A stretch of 47,297 nucleotides of DNA, from assembly GCA_041576165.1 (NCBI GenBank), contig JBFGLM010000036.1, positions 1 through 47,297 of the forward strand. Reading direction: 5' to 3'. This stretch comes from Acidimicrobiia bacterium. GTDB taxonomy: Bacteria; Actinomycetota; Acidimicrobiia; Spongiisociales; Spongiisociaceae. The notes under the pieces were generated by a model. It saw only the letters and a program-made list of their open reading frames with translations, ran no database searches and was not told where the DNA came from. Of this stretch, positions 4,384 to 13,520 are shown in pieces (the stretch's first letter is position 1; each line of letters opens with the position of its first letter). The position numbers and the translations under genes were made by a program.

Positions 4384-5312
4384 GGCGTCTCCTCGGGTGG
4401 CGGGACGACACCGCGTTGGTCGGTGATCCGCCGGTAGGCGGCCGGGACGCGGTAGAGATCGAAATCGAACAGAGTCTGCTTGTAGCTTGCGCAGAAGTCG
4501 AGGTCCAGGTCCGCGACGATCACTTCGTCGCCGGTGGTGATGGCCTGGGCGATGATCTGGCCGGAGGGGGCAACTATGAGGGAATGCGCCAGCGATTCGA
4601 CGCCTTCTTCGAATCCGCCCTTGGCGATACCCATGACGTAGGTGCCGTTCTGGTAGGCGCCCGCCTGCATCACCAGCGAGTTGTGGAACGAGGCGAGCGG
4701 ATTCTGGGTGGGATCTGGGGCGTAGCTGAGCGGCGTGTTGTACCCGATGATTATGAGTTCGACGCCCTGCAGGCCCATCACCCGGTACGTTTCCGACCAC
4801 CGGCGGTCGTTACAGATCGCCGCACCGATGATGCCTCCGAACGCCTGCCAGACCGGGAAATCATCACCGGGCTCAAAGTAGTGCCGCTCCGCATGCTGGA
4901 ATTCACGCCACGCCTCGTACTCACCGTGACCTGGAATGTGCACCTTCTTGAAGACGCCGATGGTCGATCCATCCTTGTCGACGAGGTGGTAGACGTTGAA
5001 ATGCCGGTCATCACTCGTGCGGAGGGCGTAGCCGAGACCAAACCCAACGTTCAGCCGCAGCGCCTCATCGAAAAGCGGCTTGGTCTCCGGACCGGGCATC
5101 TCGGTCTCGTAGTAGTACGCCGCCTCTTCGAGCGGAACATGCCACCGGGGGAAGAAGGTGGTGAGCGCCAGCTCTGGGAAGGCTACGAATTCGACGCCGC
5201 GGCCCGCGGCGTCGCGCAGCATCTCGATGAGCCGTTCCACCACTACCGCTCGGGTGTCGGCGCGCTGCACAGGACCCATCTGTGCTGCTGCCACCGTCAA
5301 TTTCCGTGTCAA
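4380..5312 (-). CDS. N-carbamoyl-D-amino acid hydrolase (nitrilase superfamily)
   Basis: AAAQMGP, FPELALTTFFPRW, KKVHIPGH, ICNDRRW and GYNTP match D-carbamoylase, with the Glu-Lys-Cys triad intact. TTG start. Confidence 0.88.
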   Translation of the reverse strand: MTRKLTVAAAQMGPVQRADTRAVVVERLIEMLRDAAGRGVEFVAFPELALTTFFPRWHVPLEEAAYYYETEMPGPETKPLFDEALRLNVGFGLGYALRTSDDRHFNVYHLVDKDGSTIGVFKKVHIPGHGEYEAWREFQHAERHYFEPGDDFPVWQAFGGIIGAAICNDRRWSETYRVMGLQGVELIIIGYNTPLSYAPDPTQNPLASFHNSLVMQAGAYQNGTYVMGIAKGGFEEGVESLAHSLIVAPSGQIIAQAITTGDEVIVADLDLDFCASYKQTLFDFDLYRVPAAYRRITDQRGVVPPPEETP

Positions 5313-5456
5313 ATCGCTTCTCCGCGGGCCGTGCAGGCTCCCGAGACTACGCCGATCGCCAGTTCTATTCGCCGGCCGGCCGCCCTACGTCTGTCGCAAA
5401 ACTGCGCCGCGCTCGAGCGTCCAGGGCAGGCCAAAGCCCGGCCGGGCGCCGGAGCT

Positions 5457-5490
5457 TTTACATTTTGCAAAGGCTTTGACATTCTGTCAA
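5457..5490. promoter_or_regulatory. Two tandem palindromic operator sites overlapping a minus-strand sigmaA-type promoter
   Basis: TTTACA-TTT-TGCAAA (5457-5471) and the perfect palindrome TTGACA-TTC-TGTCAA (5476-5490). The minus strand reads TTGACA-17 nt-CAAAAT. Lies in the divergent intergenic region. Confidence 0.7.
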
Positions 5491-5537
5491 GGTCCGCCGG
5501 GCCGGGTGTAACCTTCGGCCGAGGCAAAGGAGACGGT

Positions 5538-6377
5538 ATGCAGGGAATCGTCCGCGCCGCCCTGGTCCAGGCAGAGTGGACTGGCGACCAGGAATCCATG
5601 ATCCTCAAGAACCAGGGTTATGCCCGGGAGGCGGCCAACGACGGGGCCCAGGTGCTGTGCTTTCAAGAGATCTTCTCGGCGCCCTATTTCTGTACCACTC
5701 AGGACCGCCGCCACTTCTCCTACGCAGAAGAGATGCCGGGCCCGACCACCGCACGGATGCAGCGTCTGGCTCGAGAGACCGGCATGGTGCTGGTCGTGCC
5801 CATGTTCGAGAAAGTCGACGAGGGCACCTACTACAACAGCGCGGCGGTGATTGACGCCAATGGCGAATACCTGGGCATATACCGCAAGAACCACATTCCC
5901 CAGGTGCAGGGGTTTTGGGAGAAGTTCTACTTCCGGCCGGGCAACCTGGGATATCCGGTGTTCGACACCGCGGTCGGCAGGGTCGGCGTGTACATCTGTT
6001 ATGACCGCCATTTCCCGGAGGGATGGCGCGAGCTTGCTCTGAACGGCGCCAAGATCGTTTTCAACCCATCGGCCACCACCCGCGGTCACTCCATGTATCT
6101 GTGGCAAGTGGAGCAGCCGGCGGCCGCCGTGGCCAACGAGTACTTCATCGGCGCCAGCAACCGGGTCGGGCCTGAGCCGGCCGAGAACACCGACTACTAC
6201 GGGTCGTCCTACTTCGTCGACCCGCGGGCACAAATCATCGGTGAAACAGCGTCGGACACCGACGACGAGGTGGTCATTCGCGATCTCGACATGTCGATGA
6301 TCGAGGAGATCCGCAACTACTGGCAGTTCTTCCGGGATCGCCGGCCCGACTCGTACACGGCAATCTCGGCGCTATGA
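5538..6377 (+). CDS. Beta-ureidopropionase-like carbon-nitrogen hydrolase, 279 aa
   Basis: CFQEIF, YYNSAAVID, YRKNHIPQ, FWEKFYFRPGN, ICYDRHFPE, FNPSAT, NRVG. RBS AAGGAG before ATG 5538. Confidence 0.88.
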   Translation: MQGIVRAALVQAEWTGDQESMILKNQGYAREAANDGAQVLCFQEIFSAPYFCTTQDRRHFSYAEEMPGPTTARMQRLARETGMVLVVPMFEKVDEGTYYNSAAVIDANGEYLGIYRKNHIPQVQGFWEKFYFRPGNLGYPVFDTAVGRVGVYICYDRHFPEGWRELALNGAKIVFNPSATTRGHSMYLWQVEQPAAAVANEYFIGASNRVGPEPAENTDYYGSSYFVDPRAQIIGETASDTDDEVVIRDLDMSMIEEIRNYWQFFRDRRPDSYTAISAL

Positions 6378-6993: not shown

Positions 6994-8139
6994 TTACCGC
7001 TCAACGCCCGTGAACAACGCCACCGTGGGCAGGTTGGTGGGGATGGACCCTTCGCGCACATTGTGCAGAATCCCAGCGAATCCGGCCGTGCCGGTGGGAT
7101 CAGCCTCGATTGAGGTGTGTGCCCGGGCCAGGCGGTGCGCCTCCACAACAGTCTCTTCGGCCACCGTCGTGGGCCAGCCGCCGGTGATGAGCGTTGCCTC
7201 GAGGATGGTCGGCCAGTCGTACGTAACATCATCGAGGATTCCCGACGCGGCCGAGGTCCCCACCGGCTCCCACGGCCACATGAAGCGATCCGGTTCGTCA
7301 TGAATCAGCACAAGCTGTGTGTGGGTGTCACTGCTCTCCTCATTCAGCAAGTCCCAGGCGCGAGTGAGCGGAGCACACGCTTCTGTCTGCACCGGATGTA
7401 GCACAAGGTCGAGACCCGATGCAGCCTCGAGACCGAGCCACAGCGACGTGGCGAGCGCGCCTCCCCCCACCTGGACGAACACCCGGACCGGCCCTTCTAT
7501 GCCTGCCGCGATCAACTGGTCGGCCAGTTCCCAGCCGATCGTCCGCCCCCCGTCCAGGGTGATGGGCGTCACCGTGCCCTGGCACGAGAAGGGCACCGCT
7601 CCCCCGGCCACCGCCTCGACGAAGCGCAGATAGGTCGGATCGCCGGCTTCGCCCGGTCGTCGCTCGCAGACGCTGATTCGTGCTCCCAGCTCCTCGAGCC
7701 GAGCAACCACCAGCGGGTCTGCCCAGGTGGGTATGAAGACGCGCAGAGGCCGGTCGGCCGCTCGCGCCACCACCGCAGCCGCCAGCGCCGCATTGCCACA
7801 CGAGGCGATTGCCAGCTCGCCAACGGTTTCGGTGGTGACCGCGTGATGCAGCAGGACGCCGAAGAGATGCCGTGCCTTGTGCGATCCACCGACGTTGCGC
7901 GTCTCGTCCTTGATCCACAGCGCCCCCGCCTGCAGTCCTGCCGCTTCAGCTAGTGCCCCCTCGTTGGTGGTGGGCGTGACCGCAAAGCCGGTCCCTTCCA
8001 CGTCCTGAACTGCCAGGTCGAGTCGTTCGACGAGTGCCACGAAGCGCCGGTCTGTCCAACCGCGCTCCTGCGCGAGCCGGTACGAGTCCAGCCGAACGCG
8101 GTAGCGGATGAACGGATTGGCCGGCGCCGTGGGCATCAT
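6994..8139 (-). CDS. PLP-dependent fold-type II enzyme (threonine synthase / beta-eliminase-like), 381 aa
   Basis: [16 protein letters not shown] (PLP Lys), [30 protein letters not shown] 8139 overlaps the upstream stop. Confidence 0.82.
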
Positions 8140-9623
8140 TCGATGGTTACACCGGTCCGGGCGTTCAACTCGCCGATCATCTCGTCCCAGCGGGCGGGAT
8201 AACCGCGTAGACCATCCCACCAGTCTTGCGACCGCCTCGCCTCGAACCGGTCGAAGTCCACTCCCTGCTGCTCGACCCACGTGTAGTACCCGAGGTTGAA
8301 GATCCGCCGCCGCCCTGCTTCGTCCAGCTCCATGACGTGCTCGGTGTCGACCGCCTGGAGGAACCTGGCATGGGTGGCAATCGCTTCAGAGTGCCCGAAT
8401 TCGCCGCCGTGATCCCGGGCGGTGATTTTGTCGAGTTCCGATCGGTAGAGCTCCATGCCGTCGGTCGCGACGGTGACGATTACATCTCCCGTCCCGTATC
8501 CGTGGTACTTGGCCAGCTTGACTGCGGCCAGCATGTTGGCGATCGACGACAGGCCCAGATGGCGCAAGCTGTCGACGAGACGGGGTTCAATCCCTTGAGT
8601 CTGCAACAGCTTCTTTCCGGACTCGGTGTTGAACAGCACCAACAAGCTGTCGGTGGCTCGATCCGAAACCGCGATCACATCGTCGGAGTTCGTCACGTTG
8701 TGGATCAACGGGATGTGTTTGTCGCCGATGCCCTGAATGTTGTGCTCGCCGTAACCGTTGTAGAGCATGGTCGGGCATTCCAGCGCTTCGACCGGCACGA
8801 TACGCGAGCCAAACCGGGCCTTCAGGTAGTCGCCGGCCCCCAATGTCCCGGCTGAACCCGATGCGGAGATGAAGGCCACCAACCGTCCTGCATCCGCGTG
8901 TTCCACGACCTTCTCCAGCGCAGGACCGGTGACCGCGCGGTGGCCGAGGTGGTTGGAGAACTCGGAAAACTGGTTGAGGATGATGTTGTTGGGGTCCTTG
9001 GCCAGCTCATTGCATTGGTCGTAGATCTCTTTGACGTTCGACTCGGTCCCGTACGTCCTAATGATGTCGTCCGGCGACGAGGTCCAGGCGTCGAGCCACT
9101 CGAAGCGCTCGCGGCTCATCCCCTCCGGGAGAACAGCCACACCACGCGCACCCATGATGCGCGAGATCGCCACCCCGCCCCGCGCGTAGTTCCCGGTGCT
9201 GGGCCAGATCGCTCGGTCCCGAGTCGGATCAAAGCGCCCAGCCACGATGCGCGGAGCCAGACAGGCGTACGCAGCCAGCACCTTGTGGGCGCGAATCATC
9301 GGGAACCGGTTGCCGAGCGCGATGAGGATGGTGGCGTCCACCCCGGTCAGCTCGCCGGGCAACGAGAGGTATTCGGGAACGCCGACCATCGACGTACGGT
9401 CGGAACCGTTGTGCCAGTGGACCCGCCACAAGTTGAGAGGATCCGGGTCATCAGGAGCCACCCGCGCCAGTGCTCGAATCACCGGCGGCGGGATGGTCGA
9501 TGGCTCGGCCAACTGCGCGAACGTCGGAAGCAGTATCCCGCGCTCGGAGAACCGTGCGACGGTGGCGGCCAGCGCGCTCTCATCCTCGATGGAATCGTAG
9601 AGTCCGAGTTCCTGATCGCTCAC
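8136..9623 (-). CDS. PLP-dependent fold-type II enzyme (cysteine synthase-like, long form), 495 aa
   Basis: AHKVLAAY (PLP Lys), [52 protein letters not shown] before the GTG start. Confidence 0.85.
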
Positions 9624-11511: not shown

Positions 11512-12588
11512 TCAATCAGACGAGGACGCAGGGGGAACCCAGATATCCCGACCCTGCATCAGCTGTACCTGCCGATCGATGACTTTCGTCCGGTATTCGG
11601 CATGTTTGTACGGCTCACGATCCGCATAGAGGTTCTTGGGATAGATGGGCTGCTCATAGACGATCTGATACAGCTCGGTGCGGAGATCCTTCATCCAGTT
11701 GGTCCAGAGCGAACGCGAACGGTGATGGCGCAGCGCTTCGATGTTGATGGGCCCGCACACCCAGGAGGACACACCCGAGTAATCGTGTTTGCCGACAACC
11801 TGGCCGCGGTAGTCGACGATCATCGATCCTCCGCCAAACGCATCGATGGGCGTGTCGCTGTCGACCGTGAGGTAGTAAGTGCCGACATTCGGGGCCAGCA
11901 CATACATGTTGTTGTCCAGCGCACGAGCTCGGGTCTGAACCTCGAAGTAGTCGTTGCTTGCAGCTGGGTGCGGGATCGATGCGCGATATACGAGCTCAGC
12001 GCCGTTCATGGCCAGCGCCCGCGCGTTCTCCGGGTAGGAGCCCTCATTTGCCATCATGATGCCCATCCGGCCGATGTCTGTGTCGACTACCGGCCAGAAG
12101 GCCTCCAGGGTGCGGCCATACCGATCCACCCACCAGTCGTACACGTCATGCGGACACATCGAATGCTCGACCGGAAACAGGGGCGTGGTCTTGTAGTGCC
12201 GCAGGATCACCGCTCCGGTGGGGTCCAGGATGAACCCCACGTTGAAGAACCGATCCTTCCATTCGGGGTGGCGCGCTTTGGCCTGCGCCATGACGTACAC
12301 GTCGTACTGGCGAGCGATCTCTCCGAGGGCGTCCGTCTCCGAACCGGGGATGTCGATAGCGCATGTGTTGGCAAACTCAGCATGGTCGAGGTCCATCACC
12401 TCGTCATTGAATCCTTGGAGTGCACCTTCCGGATAGGCAATCAGCCGGACGGGGAGGTCGAGTGTCGTCAGCCAGCAGGCCGCCTTGACGATGTGCGCTT
12501 GATGCTCGATGTTGCGCATGATGTCGGCCCGCGCGCTGACGCCCCACATCGTCGGGACGAGACCAACTGCGTTGTACGGTTCGATCAC
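11512..12588 (-). CDS. Nitrilase-superfamily protein with Ala at the catalytic Cys position, 358 aa
   Basis: YPEGALQG, FFNVGF, HYK, DTDIGRMGIMMANEGSYPE, RARALDN, GGSMIVD. GTG 12588 after GGGAGG. Confidence 0.82.
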   Translation of the reverse strand: MIEPYNAVGLVPTMWGVSARADIMRNIEHQAHIVKAACWLTTLDLPVRLIAYPEGALQGFNDEVMDLDHAEFANTCAIDIPGSETDALGEIARQYDVYVMAQAKARHPEWKDRFFNVGFILDPTGAVILRHYKTTPLFPVEHSMCPHDVYDWWVDRYGRTLEAFWPVVDTDIGRMGIMMANEGSYPENARALAMNGAELVYRASIPHPAASNDYFEVQTRARALDNNMYVLAPNVGTYYLTVDSDTPIDAFGGGSMIVDYRGQVVGKHDYSGVSSWVCGPINIEALRHHRSRSLWTNWMKDLRTELYQIVYEQPIYPKNLYADREPYKHAEYRTKVIDRQVQLMQGRDIWVPPASSSD

Positions 12589-12719
12589 GACAGCCTCCCT
12601 CTGGTGACGCCCACCGATCCTGGCACGTCGGATCTGATGGAACAACGGCCCGACAGAACCGCCCATCGAGACTGGGGTCGCCGCTTGACCGCCTTCGATC
12701 CAGTGCTGATCATGTGCGG

Positions 12720-13520
12720 ATGGAGGACGAATCTCGATATCGCGCCACCGAGTTCTCCGAGCGGTACAAGCTCGTTGAGCATCCATCGATGGCTCGGGCC
12801 GAACGCCACGTCATCGGCGCTGCCTACGGTGCCACGAGTTACACAACCAGCGCCCAGGCAGATCGCCTGGGCGGCATCCTCAACCTCGGACGCGGCAAGC
12901 GGTTGCTCGACGTTGGGGCCGGGGCCGGCTGGCCTGGTGTCTACATGGCCGCCAGCACCGGATGCGACGTCGTCCTCACCGATCTTCCGCTCGAGGGCCT
13001 CCTGGTCGGCATGAGCCGGATGGGGCGCGACGGCGTCTCCGGATACGCCGTCGGTGCCTCTGGTGATGCCCTGCCGTTCCAAGACGGTGTGTTCGACGCG
13101 GTTACCAGCTCCGATGTGCTCTGCTGACTAGAACCCAAGCTCTCCGTGTTGAGAGCCAGTCACCGGGTCCTCAAAGCTGGCGGGCGCCTGGCGTTTGTGG
13201 TGATTGCCGTCCCGGAGGACCTTCCGGCCGCCGCGCGCGCCACTGCTAGTGAGCTGGGACCGGACCACGTGGACGGCGACGCCTATCCCAGCTTGGTCTC
13301 TCATGCCGGTTTCGTCGACTGCGACGTCACCGACGTATCGCACGAGTACGCCGACACCCTGCTCGCCTGGATTCGGGAGTGGGAGGTCGAGCGCGACGGG
13401 CTGACATCTGTAATGAGTCGGGACGAGTTCGAGGACTGGCAGGCGCGGCGCCGGCGGGCGCTGGGGGCGATCAGACGCGGTCTTCTGCGCCGCTACCTCG
13501 TTGCCGCCTCGCGGCCATAA
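12720..13520 (+). CDS. Class I SAM-dependent methyltransferase with in-frame UGA (candidate selenoprotein, Cys-Sec), 266 aa if read through
   Basis: Motif I LLDVGAGAG, DALPFQDGVFDAVTSSDVLC-TGA(13125-13127)-LEPKLSVLRASHRVLKAGGRLAF. The two ORF-track pieces share a frame and together make one complete domain. Confidence 0.75.
13125..13162 (+). promoter_or_regulatory. Candidate bacterial SECIS element
   Basis: UGA, 11 nt, stem GCUCUC/GAGAGC (13139-13144/13151-13156) with loop CGUGUU. A lower stem UGACU/AGUCA (13125-13129/13158-13162) includes the UGA. Confidence 0.6.

Follow-up and report, generated by a model that had tools for sequence, protein, structure and literature searches.

A candidate selenocysteine-containing class I methyltransferase with a vicinal Cys-Sec pair in Acidimicrobiia

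Prokaryotic selenoproteins are compiled as 119 families in Table 1 of a review dated May 2026, in which the methyltransferase entries comprise ArsM (motif UxxG, where U is selenocysteine, Sec), MGMT, MduS (motif CxxU, with two Sec residues), methyltransferase/UXPK-star and two ArsM fusions (PMC13188914). MduS, a selenoprotein with a methyltransferase domain (PF13649) that was predicted by comparative genomics, is listed there with credit to Haft and Tolstoy (2025). The present analysis deals with a gene in a 47,297-nucleotide stretch of DNA from an Acidimicrobiia bacterium (contig JBFGLM010000036.1 of assembly GCA_041576165.1), hereafter the window, in which a hidden selenoprotein had been proposed from an inspection of the letters (the original prediction). 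Positions 12720–13520 very probably constitute a single gene for a class I S-adenosylmethionine (SAM)-dependent methyltransferase, the UGA at codon 136 of which is decoded as Sec. The family to which it belongs is a large one, defined by an invariant vicinal pair, either Cys-Cys (CC) or Cys-Sec (CU), located just after strand 4 of the fold.

No NCBIfam model, selenoprotein models included, reached its cut-off on the window protein, a comparison that had been suggested together with the original prediction. The best match was the DVU_1556 family methyltransferase (NF045667), with which the methyltransferase fold is shared, but the window protein scores 51.2 bits against a cut-off of 155 bits and is not a member. 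The ArsM selenoproteins (NF008823, with the fusions NF041536 and NF041537) are also class I SAM methyltransferases containing Sec, but here too the window protein is not a member, scoring 39 bits against the NF008823 cut-off of 263 bits; while the UxxG motif of ArsM lies further on in the chain, the CU pair of the window family immediately follows strand 4. The As(III)-binding residues of ArsM are presumably three to four cysteines, one of them in an SNCV motif after strand 4. In contrast, the only invariant cysteines of the window family are C135 and C136, and SSDVLCU is found instead of SNCV.

A class I methyltransferase with one Sec in a CU motif is absent from the 119-family table, the supplements of the review lying outside the comparison (PMC13188914). 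With its one UGA and its CU motif, the family is new within a well known kind, the bacterial selenoproteins; it is set apart from MduS by the description given in the table alone, and a distant kinship is conceivable (PMC13188914). Literature searches found no description of a CU/CC methyltransferase family, Haft and Tolstoy (2025) and the supplements being outside their scope, and a prior listing is conceivable. The database names of homologues (P0154 among them) are those of generic methyltransferases. Elsewhere in the same table, the CU motif occurs in SaoL, HgcA, SaoC and MbdU, which handle metals or organometals, with Cys-Cys in the sulfur forms (PMC13188914). An adjacent Cys-Sec is common to these proteins and to the window family, but the folds are unrelated and the likeness is restricted to the dyad. 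The same is true of thioredoxin reductase, which ends in GCUG, also an adjacent Cys-Sec, and has an unrelated fold.

The open reading frames (ORFs) 12714–13127 and 13146–13520 lie in one frame, with only the TGA and six sense codons between them, as originally described. Read across the TGA, the product is ...FDAVTSSDVLC-U-LEPKLSVLRASHRVLKAGGRLAF...., with 266 residues if translation starts at ATG 12720 and 268 if it starts at GTG 12714; the ATG is the likelier start, and the N-termini of seven homologues line up from it in the alignment. The Pfam Methyltransf_11 (PF08241) match, which scores 52.1 bits against a cut-off of 21.2, covers residues 65–161 of the 268-residue form and crosses the stop, so that neither ORF alone represents a whole domain. 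ORF calling by standard rules yields two fragments at the locus. Both the incompleteness of the halves and this splitting had been anticipated in the original prediction.

The TGA is a constant feature of the close homologues. Six-frame genome searches, in which the read-through protein or its alignment was used as the query, retrieved seven best matches in 61 related genomes (35–100% identity, two of them in the same genome as the window), all seven with exactly one TGA; no TGA is present in any of the weaker matches listed, which lie outside the family. Among 401 genomes of the class, the 250-bit mark was passed by 15 matches, 14 with one TGA and one without, and in 401 genomes of the phylum one TGA was found in all 19 matches, distributed over 17 genomes (four of these matches come from the unpublished genomes G596, G644 and G656). 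Its position does not vary, the motif D-x-x-C-U-x-x-x-K being present in every Sec-form match. The only stop-free close homologue, from genome G322, reads DVLCCLPEKHAALGE (DVLCC, that is, Cys-Cys) and is devoid of the hairpin described below; no selA match was found in G322 or in three other sampled genomes of its genus, and no tRNA-Sec was detected in G322 at E <= 1e-8. On the other hand, selA is present in 12 of the 13 Sec-form genomes of the class sample, and in the remaining one, G039, a tRNA-Sec was found with a score of 80 bits.

Exchange of Sec for Cys is also apparent in a library of 1.84 billion representative proteins, the best 150 matches of which were sorted by type: 69 are full-length Cys-Cys proteins, two are full-length with Cys-Trp (P0009 and P0064), 22 end exactly at ...DxxC, six are C-terminal pieces and 51 are fragments that the motif test did not classify. 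Cys-Cys is therefore found in 69 of the 71 full-length proteins with a readable motif I, the other two being the Cys-Trp proteins, and a second library search gave Cys-Cys in 118 of 120 listed matches; beyond these, neither His nor Ser nor any other residue occupied the Sec column among the library homologues read. The Cys-Trp of P0009 and P0064 probably results from a gene caller translating UGA as Trp. P0009 continues with KLSVLRAS after its Cys-Trp, and P0064 is known as a motif match only. The original prediction had asked whether this codon stays TGA or Cys in homologues and whether database proteins end at a DVLC-type site; the genome searches and the two classes of library protein answer both in the affirmative. 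In a rapidly built tree with 133 rows (84 Sec and 49 Cys), from which duplicates, rows with extra stops and rows lacking the full 220-residue core had been dropped, at least five switches between Sec and Cys fall on well supported branches. Support in this midpoint-rooted tree is from the Shimodaira–Hasegawa-like approximate likelihood-ratio test only, and the sample is biased, since most Sec rows were found via the hairpin pattern. A further Sec-form relative with the same hairpin occurs in the same metagenome, on a contig of run X3 that matches window positions 13137–13172; its unaligned letters ahead of 13137 read ...GTCATGTGTTGAATC..., which translates as V-M-C-U-I.

Species-representative genomes contain the exact DNA pattern TGY-TGA-N11-GCTCTCCGTGYTGAGAGC in at least 118 stretches, and a methyltransferase motif surrounds it in all 80 loci examined. 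Motif I lies in the open upstream frame of 72 of these 80, and the remaining eight are truncated at the end of the locus, have a degraded appearance or possess a motif I that escaped the search pattern. By record title, most pattern loci belong to Acidimicrobiia (Ilumatobacteraceae and Acidimicrobiaceae), and the others to further Actinomycetota, Chloroflexota (Dehalococcoidia and Chloroflexia), Longimicrobiales, Thermoanaerobaculia and Dormiibacterota. The class Acidimicrobiia is unusually rich in Sec users, with selA in 275 of the 401 sampled genomes, including genomes of about 1 Mb in family f16. Two loci, L097 and L132, have an intact UGA and hairpin and no recognizable methyltransferase sequence upstream in that frame, and may be decaying genes or assembly frameshifts.

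The hairpin downstream of the UGA was found as originally described, with a 6-bp stem GCUCUC/GAGAGC and the loop CGUGUU, the stem starting 11 nt and the loop 17 nt past the UGA. According to the Fig. 2 legend of the review, the model of the bacterial Sec insertion sequence (bSECIS) has a loop of 3–9 nt with G at its first or second position, often followed by U, a stem of 4–16 bp, a UGA-to-loop distance of 16–37 nt and a minimum free energy of at most −7.5 kcal/mol (PMC13188914). The window hairpin agrees with every one of these constraints (6-nt loop with G at position 2 and then U, 6-bp stem, 17 nt, −12.3 kcal/mol). No Rfam family matched within 12900–13400 at E <= 1.

Comparison with homologues indicates that the element is maintained. 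In 32 Sec-form loci found by protein similarity (31 of them distinct; four rows, three of which are also in public records, come from unpublished genomes), a 6-bp stem lies 11 nt past the UGA without exception and the loop consensus is CGUGYU. The stem is GCUCUC/GAGAGC in 27 loci and GCUCGC/GCGAGC in two (a U-A to G-C change); the 3' arm is GAGGGC in two more (U-A to U-G), and one locus has GCGCUC/GAGC(A)GC. Bases are paired in 98.9% of cells in the true register, compared with 32–62% when the 3' arm is slid. One pair changed from U-A to G-C in two cases and another in one, and U-A gave way to U-G twice, so that two pairs display compensatory two-sided changes, as would be expected of the covarying hairpin that the original prediction had asked for, and the covariation score was reached by none of 500 shuffles. 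The lower stem UGACU/AGUCA, also part of that prediction, does form in the window copy, but pairing across the 32 homologues reaches only 50.3% of cells, which rules it out as a conserved feature.

The codons that build the hairpin are frozen: Lys is AAG in 31 of 31 sequences, Leu CTC in 30 of 30, Ser TCC in 29 of 29 and Val GTG in 31 of 31, with an entropy of 0 bits. Outside the stretch from the UGA to the hairpin, conserved Gly, Leu and Arg columns have codon entropies of 1.5–2.1 bits, with one Leu column at 0.59, and other conserved residues go down to 0.23 bits. In 26 of 30 sequences the Arg codon of the 3' arm is AGA, a rare codon that accounts for 2.7% of Arg codons genome-wide. This freezing of synonymous sites is a stronger sign of selection at the RNA level than the covariation. 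As a bacterial SECIS, the hairpin would bring SelB and Sec-tRNA(Sec) to a ribosome paused at the UGA.

The machinery that such decoding would need, namely tRNA-Sec, SelA, SelB and SelD, is encoded in the genome, all the genes that had been proposed for checking (selA, selB, selC and selD) being found. There are two tRNA-Sec genes with anticodon UCA (contigs C1 and C145), two selA–selB pairs (contigs C24 and C100) and a selD (C1:171385-172317) that itself contains an in-frame UGA (...SHGAGUACKLG...), with a 6-bp hairpin, AGCUCG/CGAGCU, 7 nt past this UGA and the loop GUCCCGG. A second copy of the CU-methyltransferase, 54% identical to that of the window, is located at C90:4502-5323, in a locus seemingly almost identical to one contig of genome G319.

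Several observations weigh against reading the UGA as Sec or reduce the force of the arguments above. The fold of the single sequence is ordinary (z = −1.0, equalled by 42 of 200 shuffles), for which reason the case for the hairpin rests on the comparison with homologues, and the covariation is thin, with double changes in 3 of 186 cells, because the stem is almost invariant. Genome G039 has the Sec form, yet selA was not found in it. The genome of the window is a bin of 5.1 Mb in which contamination amounts to 7.5% and the Sec genes are doubled; given this size, the contamination and a second methyltransferase copy resembling a contig of G319, it probably mixes two Acidimicrobiia genomes. Neither GC content nor tetranucleotide composition tied contig C36 to one set of Sec genes, the key contigs all having about 65% GC. 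Finally, selenium incorporation at the UGA and expression of the gene are predictions from sequence.

Of the other explanations for the UGA, a one-off nonsense mutation or base-call error, leaving a pseudogene or two fragments, would agree with the splitting of the gene by standard ORF calling and with the degraded appearance of L097 and L132 upstream of the motif. It is nevertheless exceedingly improbable: the TGA occupies the same column in every Sec-form homologue and recurs in the at least 118 genome stretches, the residues after the stop are conserved, and the invariance of R258 (like K140, downstream of the stop) implies selection on the portion that follows the UGA. In contigs from two additional samples of the same study, the TGA is covered with no differences (the contigs of runs X5 and X7 do not include the UGA itself); this excludes a base-call error, an outcome named beforehand as one that would count against the original prediction. 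Reading of the UGA as Trp, Cys or another standard residue, through a reassigned code or near-cognate suppression, is favoured by the Cys-Trp of P0009 and P0064, but is also very improbable, if somewhat less so. TGA is the true terminator of four of the seven homologous genes, the genome encodes a Sec machinery, the hairpin fits the bSECIS model and is under RNA-level selection, and stop-free homologues have Cys at the aligned site, the Cys form occurring in a genome (G322) where selA was not found. The conserved UGA, the Cys/Sec pairing, the selection on the hairpin, the Sec machinery, the fold and the position in the active site, all of which are established by the computations, instead favour decoding as Sec.

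An AlphaFold2 model of the whole chain, based on a 39-sequence alignment, has a mean predicted local distance difference test score (pLDDT) of 94.6. Its top PDB matches are all methyltransferases, namely plant and parasite phosphoethanolamine N-methyltransferases (PMTs), RebM, AtmM, TleD and MitM, with template-modelling (TM) scores of 0.72–0.78. A Pfam match above its cut-off, a GxGxG motif and a Rossmann-like fold identify the protein as a class I SAM methyltransferase. Nine positions are invariant in the 39 family members (G66, G68, G70, D88, D132, C135, U/C136, K140 and R258), of which D88 presumably provides the motif II contact to the SAM ribose.

RebM, MitM, AtmM and the PMTs (PDB entries 3bus, 8zc8, 6uv6, 5wp5 and 3uj7) share the fold and the C-terminal lid of the window protein, with profile E-values of 1e-17 to 1e-30, and their Asp and Lys/Arg residues align with D132 and K140. 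The catalytic His that follows strand 4 in the PMTs and in RebM (the second of its HH) is absent from the window family, in which the column holds Sec or Cys preceded by Cys. In the profile alignments the Cys-Sec pair stands opposite the His-His of RebM (SLHHMPDR), Sec136 opposite the His of MitM (SIIHMPDR) and of the plant PMTs (RDTILHIQDK), and K140 opposite the Lys of the latter motif. This fits the earlier proposal that Sec136 occupies a site that is usually His and faces the methyl acceptor. The catalytic dyad of PfPMT is given as Tyr19 and His132 (PMC6705855), and structures of its D128A and H132A mutants were among the structure matches. Mapped through the D-x-x-x-H spacing of the plant PMTs, the Sec136 column would correspond to His132 of PfPMT. 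Sec at the position of the catalytic base of a small-molecule methyltransferase is a rare case.

The substrate can be approached through the gene neighbourhoods, for which counts were made over 97 distinct Sec-form loci and are lower bounds, since flank lengths vary. An ArsM-like methyltransferase lies within 4 kb in ten loci, in nine of them upstream on the same strand, an ArsR/SmtB-rhodanese regulator is present in seven and one particular transporter of the major facilitator superfamily (MFS) in eight; at least one of the three occurs in 14. These neighbours are often tightly packed on the same strand, as in L054 (regulator, ArsM-like, CU-methyltransferase) and L124 (MFS, metallo-β-lactamase-rhodanese, ArsM-like, CU-methyltransferase). 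In a comparison of 18 loci, no neighbour was common to more than four. In all eight loci examined, the ArsM-like neighbour carries its own UGA in DLW(T/S)(G/A)U-IAG, which fits the UxxG listed for ArsM selenoproteins (PMC13188914). The eight genes are L070:2504-3313 and those of L054, L092, L104, L124, L051, L144 and L097. A hairpin downstream of this UGA has a loop containing CGUG, and the protein reads SNGVINLC, without the Cys of the SNCV motif of ArsM. A metallo-β-lactamase (GloB-like) protein is found in the same clusters (L124:2971-4509, fused to rhodanese, and L070:1-1101); from their resemblance to persulfide dioxygenase–rhodanese fusions, these proteins may hint at sulfur or selenium chemistry.

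It is quite possible, if far from assured, that the substrate is a soft species of a metalloid or chalcogen (arsenic, antimony, selenium, tellurium or sulfur) and is kept beside the methyl group of SAM by the Cys-Sec pair. The pair may also reduce an oxidized intermediate through a selenenylsulfide, much like the presumed action of the ArsM cysteines. The ArsM-like and ArsR neighbours, together with the occurrence of CU motifs in metal-handling selenoproteins, make such a substrate the most likely reading. More tentatively, the CU/CC methyltransferases might represent an unrecognized class of metalloid or chalcogen methyltransferases, in which the dyad would replace the catalytic His, bind the substrate and be recycled via a selenenylsulfide, and which in some bacteria would serve as second enzyme in an operon shared with a Sec-containing ArsM-like protein, an ArsR/SmtB-rhodanese sensor and an MFS exporter; in this complete form the proposal is rather doubtful. 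Against a metalloid or chalcogen function stand the absence of ars-like neighbours from the window copy and from the available flanks of 83 of the 97 loci, the score of the ArsM-like neighbour (221 bits, under the 263-bit ArsM cut-off) and the invariance of the Cys-Sec pair only, with no third Cys as in ArsM.

The same scarcity of ars-like neighbours would suit a selenoprotein with an ordinary organic substrate, in which Sec or Cys acts, without any metalloid, as a general base in place of His or as a covalent nucleophile. The nearest structures (AtPMT, RebM, AtmM, TleD and MitM) are indeed natural-product or phosphobase methyltransferases, and an anionic organic substrate would be in keeping with the invariant K140 and R258. 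The vicinal Cys-Cys or Cys-Sec is invariant across the family, however, the CU motif is found in the metal- or organometal-handling SaoL, HgcA, SaoC and MbdU of the table (PMC13188914), and an ArsM-like selenoprotein and an ArsR/SmtB regulator recur as linked genes, all of which render an organic substrate somewhat unlikely. Less probable still is that the pair serves as a redox switch, gated by a selenenylsulfide, or, as put forward in the original prediction, as a self-methylating relay through Se-methyl-Sec. The vicinal Cys-Sec of mammalian thioredoxin reductase does form a selenenylsulfide and the pair is located at the catalytic position, but no thioredoxin, reductase or acceptor-protein gene is linked to the methyltransferase in the loci examined.

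A soft metalloid or chalcogen substrate remains the preferred reading, and the link to an ArsM-like selenoprotein suggests a role in metalloid or chalcogen cycling. Should the tentative metalloid class prove real, Acidimicrobiia, Chloroflexota and further uncultured groups would depend on selenium for part of their environmental methylation of As, Sb, Se or Te. In at least 118 species-level genomes, annotation wrongly splits the gene in two, and it is represented in protein databases by truncated pieces ending in ...DxxC; once recognized, the enzyme family, which is widespread and particularly frequent in Acidimicrobiia, extends the bacterial selenoproteome. The natural Cys-Cys and Cys-Sec forms, which switch repeatedly on the tree, provide a ready system in which to assess what selenium buys an enzyme.

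Table 1. Features of the predicted selenocysteine-containing methyltransferase gene, in window positions
Feature	Position	Strand	Basis
Complete coding sequence (CDS), class I SAM-dependent methyltransferase, 266 residues	12720..13520, ATG 12720 to TAA 13518-13520, through UGA 13125-13127; alternative start GTG 12714	+	Frame and translation, Methyltransf_11, homologue N-termini, AlphaFold2
Motif I, SAM-binding loop D64-V-G-A-G-A-G-W-P72	12909..12935	+	G66, G68 and G70 invariant, W71 and P72 nearly invariant (39-sequence alignment)
D88, acidic residue closing strand 2	12981..12983	+	Invariant in 39-sequence alignment; model strand E83-88
D132, four residues ahead of Sec; counterpart, in the alignment, of the Asp in plant PMT motif RDTILH	13113..13115	+	Invariant in 39-sequence alignment; profile alignment
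Cys135 (TGC), first member of the vicinal pair	13122..13124	+	Invariant in three family alignments; TGC or TGT in 31/31 sequences
UGA, predicted Sec136; aligns with the second Cys of Cys-Cys forms and the catalytic His of RebM, MitM and PMTs	13125..13127	+	Homologue and profile alignments
K140, invariant Lys, last base of the codon being the first stem base	13137..13139	+	39-sequence alignment; AAG in 31/31
Candidate SECIS hairpin within the CDS	13139..13156; 5' arm G13139-C13144 (GCUCUC), loop 13145-13150 (CGUGUU), 3' arm 13151-13156 (GAGAGC)	+	Conservation, pairing, codon entropy, bSECIS model
R258, invariant Arg in the C-terminal half	13491..13493	+	39-sequence alignment

The window copy of the methyltransferase is flanked by genes for a carbon–nitrogen (CN) hydrolase, a SIMPL/DUF541 protein, a TctC protein and a histidine kinase, none of them a conserved neighbour or informative as to function. 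The window holds two carbon–nitrogen hydrolase genes, at 4416–6377 on the forward strand and at 11512–12786 on the reverse strand, the second being divergent from the methyltransferase gene. A stop-free ArsM-like gene is present elsewhere in the same genome, on contig C9, unlinked to the window, and two genes for pyridoxal phosphate (PLP)-dependent enzymes lie within the window at 6994–9623.

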